Source: Eledone cirrhosa (taxonomy: Eukaryota). Taken from it: a stretch of DNA of 64,000 nt. Positions 28,711 to 60,509 of the stretch are shown one piece after another; within the stretch, counting starts at the first letter, position 1, and each line of letters opens with the position of its first letter. The notes under the pieces were generated by a model. The model was not told the DNA's origin and did no database searches. It worked only from the letters and a program-made list of their open reading frames with translations. The translations under genes and the position numbers were made by a program. The stretch lies in assembly GCA_964016885.1 (NCBI GenBank), contig OZ024747.1:44888001-44952000 (forward strand). The letters are read 5' to 3'.

Positions 28711-29050
28711 ATATTATTATTATATCTCTTGTAGTTTCATACTGCAACATTTGGTGCACCTCCACTTTCCTGAGGTATGTGCAGTATTGTGTGGTGCTAT
28801 TTTTTGTGGGGTTGCAGGAATATGGACTCCCTTTGTTAGTCTACTGCATCAGTAATGTATAGTTTATAGTTTCTTTTGTTATTGTATTGGGTGTTTATCT
28901 TGAAAAGTATATATATATATATATATATATATATATATTGGTAAACGGAAGAGAAAATGCTGACAAATTGTTCAGTGAAAAATAGTTTAATTAGGAATAA
29001 GTGAGAATTAGTAATAGTATTGGTTAGTATTGAGTTTTGGTTTTAAGTTT

Positions 29051-30364
29051 TGGATAATTACCACAATCAACTCCCACAACGCATCAAAAAAGAATTCGTG
29101 ATAGAGGGACTCAAATTTATCTTGGAGAACAATTACTTCGTTTTCTATAACAAACCCTACAGGCAGAAATCTGGGACCGCTATGGGAACGAAAACAGCCC
29201 CCACTTATGCCAACCTAGTCATGGGATACCTGGAAATCACCCTCTACACTAAAGTCCTAAACAAATTTGTAAACACTCTCCACTTACACATAGAAAGGAA
29301 CTGGAAGCGATATCTAGATGACTGCTTCATCCTTTGGCACGAAAACATCGAGAAACTTAAAGAATTTCACACCCTTATAAATGGGCTCAACACGAATATT
29401 AACTTCACGATGGAATACAGCGATCAACAACTCCCCTTCCTCGACATCCTCATTAAGATCTATAACAAAAAATAGAAACAGACATATACTACAAGCCCAC
29501 AGACTCCAAGCAATATCTTCCTTTCAACTCTTGCCACCCTAGACACGTTAAAATTAATATTCCCTACAACTTAGCCAAGAGAATCTGTACTATAGTCTCC
29601 AATAAAAACACCAGCTACTTACGGCTACAAGAACTAAAGGATACACTCATAGGCAGAGACTACCCTGCATCACTAATTGACAATGGAATCCAACGTGCCC
29701 TAAAACTCAGTACCTTAGACACCCTAAAGTAAATCAACCGAAACTAAAAGCTCTTCCATACATCTCCACACACAACCCCCTCAACAATGAGGCCTTTGAC
29801 ACCATCCTCCAGAACATCCCTGTGTTGAAAAAGGACCATAGAATGAATCAAATCCTACGAACACACGATATCATAAAGAGCAAAAGACAATCTAAGTCAA
29901 TGAAAAACATCCTAACACATGCCAAAGTACTGCCAACCACAACAACGAAACCCACAGTAAAAAAATGCGATAGACCCAACTGTGGCATTTGCATCAACCT
30001 AATAGAGGGTTCGGAATTCTATTTCAAAGAAGGACAACGTTTTATAGTAAAACACAATTTCACATGCGCATCAAAAAATCTAATATATGTATTAACTTGC
30101 TCAGGTTGTCGAGAACAATACATAGGCCAGACCAAAAACAGCCTCCGCCAATGCATAACTGTCCATAGATCCCAAATTAAAATACGGGAATACAGGAAAA
30201 TACCACTGAGTGAACACATTGATATCTGTGCCGCCCAAAATCATCCCAACTTCAGAATCTTTCCCCTCTACAAATTTAAAGATAATGCCACCCACATCCA
30301 GCGCATCAGCAAGGAATCTTACTTTATTAACAAATACGGACCCCGTCTAAACACTTCTCCCTAA
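29051..30364 (+). pseudogene. Disrupted PLE RT and GIY-YIG endonuclease ORF
   Basis: GTAMGTKTAPTYANL, RYLDD, LPFLD, YYKPTD..CHP, Cys linker CDRPNCGIC, IYVLTCSGCREQYIGQT; stop at 29473-29475 and a later frameshift. Confidence 0.92.
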
Positions 30365-30579
30365 GACGAATCCACAACATACACACGTCAACATACATAC
30401 CTACATCAGCACACATCTCTACCCACATATAAACACAATGACATACGTAAACACACATGTTCTATGGTGCAACACAAATATACACAAATTTTCATACCTT
30501 TTGATGTCTATAGATATAAACGTGCCGACACACACACATACATAAACGCACACATGCATTGCACACTGATGGGCACATA

Positions 30580-30850
30580 CATATTTGTGCACAGGTGTTC
30601 CAATACGGCAAAGCCTAATGAATTCCCCTTGCAGTACGTACAATCTGGACACACTCCAGATACATATTTGTACACAAGTATACAATTTCTGGACACACTC
30701 CAGATACATGTGTACAATTTGTGCACAAGTATACAATTTGTGCGCAGGTATACAATTTCTGGACACACTCCAGATACATATTTGTGCACAGGTATTCCAA
30801 TACGGCAAGGCCTAATGGATCCCCTTGCAGTACGTACAATCTGGACACAC
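30580..30850 (+). repeat. Internal duplications in the PLE 3' region
   Basis: CTGGACACACTCCAGATACAT three times; CCAATACGGCAA..CCCCTTGCAGTACGTACAATCTGG twice. Confidence 0.85.
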
Positions 30851-31415
30851 ACACACACACTCACACACACCTTGGTATTATGCCAATACTATATATCATT
30901 TCACACCTTTTATTATCAAGGTTTTTGATGTTCTATTGAGAGAATCGATTTTACTGAACATATCGAATAATGTACACCATTTTACCAGAAAAAAATACTG
31001 GTCCACCCACACGCACACACACACACACACACACACACACACACACACACACACATTCTCACACACACACACACATATATACACACACATATACATACGC
31101 GTACATTAACATACAAAAAGACATATACACACACACTTCTCCGTATAAGACAAGAGCTGAAAAATATCTTTTAACATGTTAAAATATCCCCCACACACTG
31201 ACAGACACATTCCTACTGACCATCCCTCTACCACGAATTACTCTGCTACACACACACACACTTGTCTTAATAGGCATTTGAACAGTCAACAGGCTGCGGT
31301 TCGCACACACATCCCTGCTGACCATTATCACAACAACGAACCTCTTTACTACTACTACACACACACATATTTGTTGTGAAAGACTTATTTCTCAGTCAGC
31401 CGACACAAACCTACA

Positions 31416-31553
31416 TTTGGCGCAAAATTAATTGTTTACATTCACATGACCTCTACCAACCAATCAAAATTGTTTTGACCACAAGAATTTTTGCAACACG
31501 AATTGGCGCAAAACTTATTTTAATACCGCTGGAGCCACTTTTTTAACATAAAA
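31416..31553 (+). promoter_or_regulatory. Putative pLTR promoter motifs
   Basis: TTGGCGCAAAA twice (E2F-like), TCACATGAC E-box, CCAAT at 31460 and CATAAAA, all upstream of the HHR-like motif. Confidence 0.35.
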
Positions 31554-59481: not shown

Positions 59482-59679
59482 AGTTGTTATTTAATAAAAC
59501 AATATTTTTCCTATTCTTTTATCTGATCTCTCTCTCTCTCTCTCTCTCTCTCTCTCTCTCTCTCTCTCTCTCTCTATATATATATATATATATATATATA
59601 TATATATAGAGAGAGAGAGAGAGAGAGAGAGAGATCAGATAAAAGAATAGGAAAAATATTGTTTTATTAAATAACAACT
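59482..59679. repeat. Long palindrome centred on (CT)n-(TA)n-(GA)n
   Basis: About 45 bp of unique arm is perfectly inverted. Confidence 0.9.
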
Positions 59680-60173
59680 ATATATATATAAACACATGCA
59701 TATATAAGTATGTATGTATATCTTATTTTATCTTTTACAACTTAAACATCAGTTACCTTCTCATTCTCAAGTGTATGTTTGTATGTGCAAATAATTTACA
59801 CATAAAACATACACTCGCTTTCTCTATTATGGTTTTATGTTTATATGTATTTGTAAATATATATATATGTATATCTGAGTACGCATATATGTACATGTAT
59901 TTATATGTCATGTGCCAAAGACATGACAACCTCCCAAGTGTTGGTGCCATGACAAAATACATTCATATATCTAGGAGGTTAGTGAAAACCCATCCAAACC
60001 TTACTAGCAGGGAAAGCAGACGTTAAATGCTAATGCTTTCCCTACTAGTAAGGTTTGGACGAATTTTCACTGACCTCCTAGATATATGAGTGCATTATAT
60101 ATATAGATATGTCCCAAGCCTCTGATACGATCAACACTATAAACACAGAGCTGGCATATCTAAGAACTGACTA

Positions 60174-60229
60174 ACTGCCTGATGAAGTCATAGCCATTCA
60201 ATGGCTATCATCGAAATATATATAGCAGT
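60174..60229 (+). ncRNA. Type I hammerhead ribozyme
   Basis: actgc-CTGATGA-agtc atagccat tca atggctat catc-GAA-ATATATAT-A-gcagt; stem II base is imperfect. Confidence 0.78.
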
Positions 60230-60393
60230 AAATAAAGGATTATGAGTTCATTCAATTGACTTATGTTTCATCACTATATATATATATATATATATATATA
60301 TATATATATATATATAACAAAGGAAATGTGGTAAGGAACCAGGTGGACCATAACGCACCAAAGTACTCAATACTTGGGGTAGTAGAGTGGGTA

Positions 60394-60509
60394 ATAGGAA
60401 CCAGTAAGACCCCGACGGCTGAGCTCAAGCCGTTTCGACGGCTAATTCTGTCCAGAATTAGCCGTCGAAACGGCTTGAGCTCAGCCGTCGAGGTCTTACT
60501 GGTTCCTAT
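60394..60509. repeat. 57-bp-arm palindrome containing an HHR 3' half
   Basis: Arms 60394-60450 and 60453-60509 with one mismatch; GAA-ACGGCT-tgagctc-AGCCGT-C. Confidence 0.9.

Follow-up and report, generated by a model that had tools for sequence, protein, structure and literature searches.

In this study, retroelements carrying hammerhead ribozymes were investigated in a 64,000-nucleotide stretch of the Eledone cirrhosa genome (assembly GCA_964016885.1, contig OZ024747.1, positions 44,888,001 to 44,952,000 of the forward strand), hereafter the window, and at further loci of the same genome. Our data suggest that these hammerhead retroelements probably all insert by the route of Penelope-like elements (PLEs), with two families of tandem repeats, B and C, as non-coding passengers. 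Beyond this, we lean slightly towards a fuller account, in which germline ADAR would edit the circular ribozyme RNA, a Penelope enzyme would copy the same molecule from two starts, and each of the insertions, several thousand in number, would be a record of editing in a single molecule. The anatomy of the families, the rule of two ends, the homogeneity of the arrays and the asymmetry of A>G variants are read directly from the genomic copies.

Non-coding families B and C and their insertion signature

Family B (37828..38414, + strand) is represented in the window by 1.2 head-to-tail units of about 485 bp, with a hammerhead 3' half at 37836, a full ribozyme at 38256-38338 (ACCGATCGGT) and a short end 82 nt past the cut site. 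Family C (38916..42036, + strand), which is likewise arranged head-to-tail with a period of 588-595 bp (595 bp in the window), consists of a direct arm of about 3.9 units (39746-42036, +) that stops at a short end 80 nt past the cut site, and an inverted arm of about 1.4 units (38916..39754, -) that stops at a long end 247 nt past it, leaving a tail of about 165 nt. The first of its four hammerheads on the + strand lies at 40091..40180, has its predicted cut after 40175 and displays a U3-A8 core variant with helix III ACTACGTAGT; the others have their cores at 40691, 41286 and 41881, and the inverted arm harbors one more (39242-39163, -). The longest open reading frames (ORFs) starting with ATG reach 47 amino acids in B and 76 in C, the consensus GC contents are 38% and 42%, respectively, and exact copies of the ribozyme motif, counted genome-wide on both strands, number 1,156 for B and 7,458 for C (ribozyme 3' half; control 0). 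As dispersed tandem hammerhead units with no coding capacity and less than 50% GC, both families appear to fit the definition of retrozymes without long terminal repeats (non-LTR retrozymes); their unit sizes of 485 and 595 bp lie outside the 150-450 bp typical of retrozymes in passages of PMC7229834, which is a descriptive trait and not a defining one. Older relatives of family C, 78-83% identical, were noticed at two loci (L124, 854-1194; L128, 1755-2055), the former having the same helix III word as C and terminating at the long-end position. One two-arm C insertion was recorded twice, 2.55 kb apart (L208 and L211, G000:C1 19.62 Mb), as either a local duplication or an assembly repeat, and in contig X1 loose TA ends stand at both family C termini.

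Insertions of B and C are found in (TA)n targets and exhibit inverted 5' arms, variable 5' ends and fixed 3' ends. Two fixed 3' termini recur in copies of family C, at about +80 and about +245 relative to the cut site, and in family B they are +82 and +191 (+174 in some copies); these ends differ from the ribozyme cut site, and a predicted hairpin lies 10-16 nt 5' of each of the four start sites. One short and one long end were combined in 68 of the 80 two-arm insertions (C 45/52, B 23/28), while the same end twice was seen in two C and one B insertions, and this two-end rule was also observed in the autonomous families A (at least 14/16) and H (at least 23/27). A PLE protein has been reported to cleave AT-rich DNA on both strands, and reverse transcription, by the reverse transcriptase (both RT hereafter), to start at two internal sites whose spacing corresponds to the genomic 'tail' (PMC11167929); passages of PMC8557442 describe inverted 5' copies in PLEs, together with a one-sided tail and a microsatellite bias. 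Since the two-end rule of B and C matches a PLE tail between two internal RT starts, we infer PLE mobilisation, and both families have very probably been moved by a PLE enzyme. A preliminary description of this DNA had called the elements PLE-driven, and the two-end tail signature, the inversions and the TA target bear this out. Weighing on the other side, an autonomous PLE homologous to B or C was not found among the sampled loci. A motif of 6-8 A/T followed by ACTC, picked out post hoc, comes after the short end in families C, A and D, with a similar offset in H, and is absent from B and PLE1; we regard it as a lead only.

With respect to the template, divergence within the arrays of a genome-order sample of family C was below 1% except at 2 of 33 loci, and arrays mostly differed from one another by 0.5-5%. 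Variants private to one array were mostly present in every copy of it, for example in 11/11 copies at L150 and in 7-8 of 8 at L229. Private array-wide variants were located in both arms 26 times in C and 10 times in B, with one arm-restricted variant in each family, and cut-site junctions were seamless in 197/199 cases in C and 209/210 in B. As the transcript of a heterogeneous array would transmit copy-specific differences, the most parsimonious template is a circle, a single monomer being read round several times from two priming sites, and we consider with good confidence that the template would be a single-monomer circular RNA.

Other templates were also weighed. PLE insertion in vitro was independent of hammerhead cleavage and used uncut RNA, PAc working on unprocessed RNA (PMC11167929), so that PLE enzymes in general may also work from linear RNA that has not been cut; partial tandems are formed by autonomous PLEs as well, and a few mosaic variants do exist (4 in the first C sample). 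These observations speak against the circle and for a linear template, either a multimeric transcript left uncut or a cleaved monomer on which RT jumps, so that the circle would be unneeded. We hold this to be improbable, because a linear multimer would transmit copy-specific variants, whereas variants present in at least two loci are mostly array-wide; because the A>G excess described below is absent from single-copy variants; and because template jumps would be expected to leave scars at the cut-site junction, of which 406/409 are seamless. The tandem organisation of B and C and the abundance of an RT-bearing long interspersed nuclear element (LINE) nearby might also point to satellite-like DNA repeats that were amplified and homogenised at the DNA level, or moved by the RTE-like LINE of the window. 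This is very improbable in view of the thousands of dispersed short arrays, the fixed 3' and variable 5' ends under a two-end rule common to PLEs, and the variants that are common to inverted arms and biased to the ribozyme-sense strand; moreover, the LINE copies in the window end in (GAT)n-type tails, which B and C do not have.

A>G variants in family C arrays

The A>G bias was examined in a discovery sample of 38 similarity-picked family C loci and in a replication sample of 26 of the 33 genome-order loci, six of other subfamilies and one duplicate being left out. On the ribozyme strand, the array-wide variants of the discovery sample comprised 12 A>G vs 3 T>C, compared with 9 vs 17 among single-copy variants (p=0.009), and the replication sample gave 22 vs 4 and 3 vs 9, respectively (p=0.0006). 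Polarisation by nearest neighbours, conducted in the 71-array set minus arrays with fewer than three neighbours within 4%, resulted in 23 vs 7 for array-wide and 14 vs 26 for single-copy variants (p=7e-4). C>T and G>A remained balanced (4 vs 3 in the discovery and 5 vs 4 in the replication sample). Two of the 22 replication A>G sites were of ambiguous polarity and were excluded from the neighbour and recurrence tests, in which a 5' G was recorded at 1/27 A>G sites vs 27/133 background adenosines (p=0.010), and five A>G sites recurred between both C samples (p=0.018). In total, 52 A>G events, inherited ones included, were counted among 7,042 multi-copy A positions of family C (0.74%), and one array had seven A>G changes and another four. 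According to passages of PMC5625713, depletion of upstream G is a shared ADAR motif and hyper-editing in octopus is exceptionally high. An ADAR origin of the A>G changes in family C is suggested by these data, and we rate it as rather probable.

Several results count against this interpretation. Family B shows no such bias (array-wide A>G 3 vs T>C 6, single-copy 15 vs 22, p=1), A>G made up 1/12 of the both-arm variants in family A and 1/13 in family H (small samples), and the window's own C array has zero array-wide A>G relative to the consensus. The A>G sites were not significantly concentrated in the predicted stems of the circle (p=0.10, 0.24), to which it may be added that inverted arms could supply duplex RNA beyond the modelled circle stems. 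The 3' neighbour of the A>G sites was G in 9/27 and A in 3/27, and invertebrate hyper-editing prefers A downstream (passages of PMC5625713). The predicted circle fold with the hammerhead helices formed is much stabler in C (z=-8.6 vs mononucleotide shuffles) than in B (z=-2.5), which may explain why the bias exists in C and not in B.

Without editing, the same changes could stem from an error-prone first RT pass followed by amplification at the DNA level, or from selection for G-U wobbles. The absence of the bias from family B, the lack of a clear placement of the sites in stems and a 3' neighbour unlike that of invertebrate hyper-editing all suit these explanations, which we nonetheless consider unlikely. 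Wobble selection predicts an excess of C>T over G>A, and the observed balance of the two argues against it. An A>G rate of 0.74% is high for polymerase error, as are seven changes in one template, while single-copy variants, RT errors included, are symmetric; the avoidance of 5' G and the recurrence of sites likewise oppose a non-editing origin.

Autonomous PLEs (A, D, G, H and PLE1) deposit 3' ends in (TA)n that are 5'-truncated and in many cases inverted. In the cycle that we propose for the passengers, a B or C array would be transcribed, its hammerheads would release the monomer in cis, acting singly or, by way of the self-complementary helix III, as double hammerheads, and the monomer would be ligated into a circle. 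In family C, ADAR would deaminate a few adenosines before or after circularisation. The PLE RT-endonuclease would nick both strands of a (TA)n tract, and RT, primed internally at two fixed sites on one RNA and away from the ribozyme cut, would circle the template for 0.1 to about 10 turns, so that a uniform tandem array, in many cases divided into two divergent arms, would result, with each inosine fixed as G in all copies. In this cycle, it is cleavage, the circle, the PLE protein as the enzyme and ADAR as the cause that we infer.

Hammerheads and Penelope-like elements of the window

A strict descriptor detected 10 complete type I hammerheads in the window, spanning 32199 to 60224 (cores 32923+, 32248-, 42247-, 38261+, 39242-, 40096+, 40691+, 41286+, 41881+ and 60179+), and three near-complete ones (cores 35526+, 52190+ and 31622+) bring the number to 13, five of which are copies in one array. 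The near-complete motif at 35526 has the loop word ACAATTGT and a helix I that is disturbed because of an inversion junction. The cores of the other two deviate from the type I consensus: the motif at 52190 is of the minimal type with A15.1>G, and that at 31622 (ACCGGT) displays a U3-A8 core with A13>C, identical in 13 of the 15 matches that came from 14 family loci. Hammerhead 3' halves were further found at 37836+, 43256-, 43603+ and 52372+, and some inside 60317-60508. The preliminary description had listed 13 complete or near-complete motifs besides 3' halves, and this count stands as 10 strict and three deviant hammerheads; it had also raised a comparison with shuffled sequence, in which 60 block dinucleotide shuffles of the window gave 0 matches against 10 in the window, and the reversed window sequence one weak match. 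Its statement that most elements sit in (TA)n was confirmed, a TA run lying at or beside at least one end in 10/12 elements, and the inverted 5' pieces that it saw in many elements amount to inverted 5' arms in 6/12. Two weak hammerhead-like pairs (15828/24194 and 18007/19316) are probably repeats passing loose descriptors, and position 54330 was ruled out as an ACCGGT ribozyme, the upstream core being absent.

In a scan of the window with Rfam, the hammerhead family was absent among 90 matches at E<=1, and the matches obtained were microsatellite-driven microRNA matches only. Elsewhere in the genome, eight stretches of 10 kb at fixed positions yielded 10 hammerhead matches at six loci, with 0 in the reversed control, so the hammerhead density of the window is ordinary for this genome; six loci in 80 kb would correspond to about 2x10^5 hammerhead loci in the 3.0-Gb genome, as an order of magnitude only. 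The 998 kb of sampled, partly overlapping and TA-biased DNA disclosed 229 distinct matches in 31 clusters (reversed control 0). The type I hammerheads are real as sequence motifs, and their self-cleavage is predicted.

Helix III loops were self-complementary in 10/16 clusters vs 2.8 expected, the content of the loop being unscored in the descriptor. Self-complementary helix III has been described for PLE and metazoan hammerheads (passages of PMC4209133 and PMC6765202), as has U3-A8 covariation (passages of PMC4209133), and judged from the clusters the self-pairing of helix III is a conserved, non-random and already known trait. The preliminary description had stated that stem III is nearly always a different word and might act as a family-specific dimerisation code; self-complementarity beyond chance was retained, and the uniqueness of the words was lost, since ATATATAT is common to A and G and ACAATTGT to D and E, and ACTAGT occurs in two clusters. 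A code limiting dimerisation in trans to kin could draw on the excess of self-complementary loops, on related families that differ by double changes (ACAATTGT/ACATATGT, and ATATATAT/ATACGTAT/ATGCGCAT with the same helix I) and on hetero-duplexes that are mostly weaker than homo-duplexes. We nevertheless find such a code implausible, because words are shared between different families and the duplex of ATATGTAT with some non-kin words is stronger than its self-duplex. Pairing of helix I between the partners, as expected from double-hammerhead topology, is also required, so the palindrome by itself would not define identity; a partner is moreover supplied in cis by tandem copies, and different palindromes are orthogonal by default, so their orthogonality is no sign of selection.

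Most of the remaining elements belong to protein-coding families. Among families A, D, E, F, G, H, PLE1 and the minimal motif, a PLE parent was traced for A, D, G, H and PLE1 only, which are 5'-truncated 3' ends of PLEs with RT and GIY-YIG, the coding calls of A, G, H and D being based on RT and/or endonuclease (EN) motifs in their translations and on tblastn comparison to A. The term parasitic non-coding RNAs, which the preliminary description had applied to the whole set, accordingly holds for families B and C only. Structural traits of PLEs were found as inversions and two ends in A, H, D and PLE1, and as a copy with the ORF between two pseudo-LTRs (pLTR-ORF-pLTR) in G.

PLE1 (28939..31806, +) is a 5'-truncated PLE of autonomous type with a long 3' untranslated region (UTR) and broken frames for RT (29047-29475) and GIY-YIG (29681-30364); in the domain search, RVT_1 scored below and GIY-YIG above the cut-off. 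It has an inverted 3' arm (28939-29058), its two ends differing by a 36-nt tail. For its atypical hammerhead (31617..31656, +), the monomer fold is not favoured and activity with A13>C is doubtful; the motif at 31622-31651 is a natural core variant, A13>C being kept across PLE1 copies, and the initial reading of PLE1 as hammerhead-free was dropped once this variant was recognised. Family A (32062..33025) comprises two inverted 3' ends with hammerheads at 32248-32199 (-) and 32923-32972 (+), both with ATATATAT, and ends at +50 and +137. Its RT and EN frames lie upstream in four larger regions (L071-L074); a Pfam search of the family A protein fragments gave 0 matches, and the best named match of the protein was from Argonauta hians (41%), with a fragment from Octopus bimaculoides at 43%. 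A relative of family A with ATATGTAT is located at 42142..42385 (-; hammerhead 42247-42198).

Family D (35327..35682), with an inverted long-end arm and a direct arm that bears the near-complete hammerhead at 35526, has a GIY-YIG-type ORF colinear upstream at L299, the coding part being common to L085 and L296. A D relative (43022..43330, -) harbors the 3' half at 43256 with a tail, family E (43400..43680, boundaries approximate) the 3' half at 43603 with ACAATTGT and an inverted arm, and family F (52357..52609, +) the 3' half at 52372 with ACATATGT and a tail related to D. The families had been called unrelated-looking, which does not apply to D and F, with tail homology at z of about 7-9, nor to A and G, distant relatives with 73% identity over 66 nt and about 50% protein identity. 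The degenerate minimal PLE-type hammerhead (52186..52218, +) lies outside (TA)n and has a relative at L289.

Family G (60096..60270, +; hammerhead 60174-60229; 2,761 exact copies) was at one stage regarded as a fixed 176-bp short interspersed nuclear element (SINE), an artefact of similarity-picked matches that is contradicted by the pLTR-ORF-pLTR copy at L302. Family H (60317..60508) is an inverted pair of 3' ends in which the hammerhead is cut inside helix II, with a helix III of 19 nt and ends at +19 and +97. It had been taken for a core-less hairpin element until it was traced to a full ribozyme and an ORF at L123; the junction of its arms is a natural palindrome within helix II, and the catalytic core is thereby removed. 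The same 192-bp inverted structure was observed with 97-99% identity at no fewer than 40 loci (including L104-L116), and this recurrence reflects either a favoured annealing point or a self-spreading core-less element.

The window also contains other repeats. A 25-bp satellite extends over 597-5470 (195 copies, 92% identity), and a compound CAC/CAA microsatellite of 1 kb (27684-28710) lies directly left of PLE1. The two copies of the RT-bearing LINE, RTE-like in our reading, flank family D (33100-35292 and 35720-37340); their RT domain is followed by a PHD finger, and their tails are of the (GAT)n type. The best homolog is 66% identical, and no cephalopod name appeared among the best 120 of 661 matches. 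A SINE-like repeat of about 200 bp occurs in many copies, several of them as inverted pairs (43875-45240, 47700-48030, 54820-54995 and 61430-62110). A near-perfect 214-bp inverted repeat (59474-59687), centred on (TC)n(TA)n(AG)n and with a unique arm of about 50 bp, resembles a fold-back insertion, and family G is immediately preceded by an imperfect inverted pair (59940-60095), possibly another two-arm insertion.

Relation to known systems and significance

With reference to the literature, families B and C resemble the non-LTR retrozymes described from coral, mussel and axolotl in passages of PMC7229834, which are dispersed non-coding tandems without LTR, with one type I hammerhead per unit, GC below 50% and a predicted self-paired circle. 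B and C differ from them by a longer helix III (words of 8-10 nt) and, in C, by the U3-A8 core; expression and circles were demonstrated for those retrozymes, and for B and C they are predicted from genomic copies. The same passages name PLEs as a candidate mobiliser and editing as a possibility, and neither map RT starts nor mention array-wide variants or an A>G bias. Families A, D, G, H and PLE1 are like the C-terminal GIY-YIG PLEs in passages of PMC4209133, PMC8557442 and PMC11167929 in having an RT and EN ORF, a pLTR with a hammerhead, inverted 5'-truncated copies, a tail at one end and a microsatellite or AT-rich target, and differ by tails of 36-165 nt vs the 30-40 nt described there, by 3' UTRs of up to about 1.4 kb and by helix II loops of up to about 110 nt. 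Non-autonomous PLE derivatives of Chlamys such as MRC1 (passages of PMC8557442) are also non-coding, multicopy head-to-tail and moved by PLEs; they share 3' sequence with their autonomous family, and no such partner homology was found for B or C among the sampled loci. Most Chlamys elements are described there as lacking the canonical hammerheads that B and C carry.

In hepatitis delta virus, a circular RNA with a ribozyme is a substrate of ADAR, and progeny inherit the edited base; in plant organellar retroprocessing, RNA edits can be fixed in DNA by reverse transcription. Here, by comparison, insertions in the nuclear germline would take the place of progeny, and each would record a single RNA molecule. 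The preliminary description was not aware of an account from cephalopods; the giant squid genome had already yielded 235 Rfam hammerhead matches, left uncharacterised in the passages of that account (PMC6962438). In the literature searched, which covered titles and abstract openings and few subscription journals, we found no account of the present families, and neither a two-end rule in retrozymes nor edits fixed in retrozyme arrays.

For animal retrozymes, PLEs and a circular template have only been proposed in the passages of PMC7229834 and of the review PMC7761336, and that review notes that retrozyme repeats show no motif pointing to a partner. B and C bear on the mobiliser and the template of animal retrozymes; the mapped start sites (+80/+245 and +82/+191) make the question testable with the published in vitro PLE assay, and the test of array-wide variants is cheap and applicable to any retrozyme genome. 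The genome may hold hammerhead loci in the order of 10^5, a natural library of variants that Rfam missed in this window. The feature is built from known parts, and what it appears to add is mapped genomic evidence for PLE-driven rolling-circle insertion of retrozymes, while one non-coding family, C, may record RNA editing in germline DNA. If the proposed cycle is true, the arrays would be direct genomic evidence that PLEs retrotranspose metazoan retrozymes by a rolling circle. Should the A>G signal come from ADAR, RNA edits would have been fixed in germline DNA at nearly one per insertion, and a viroid-like parasite of the nucleus would be exposed to editing as a mutagen that is both directional and heritable.

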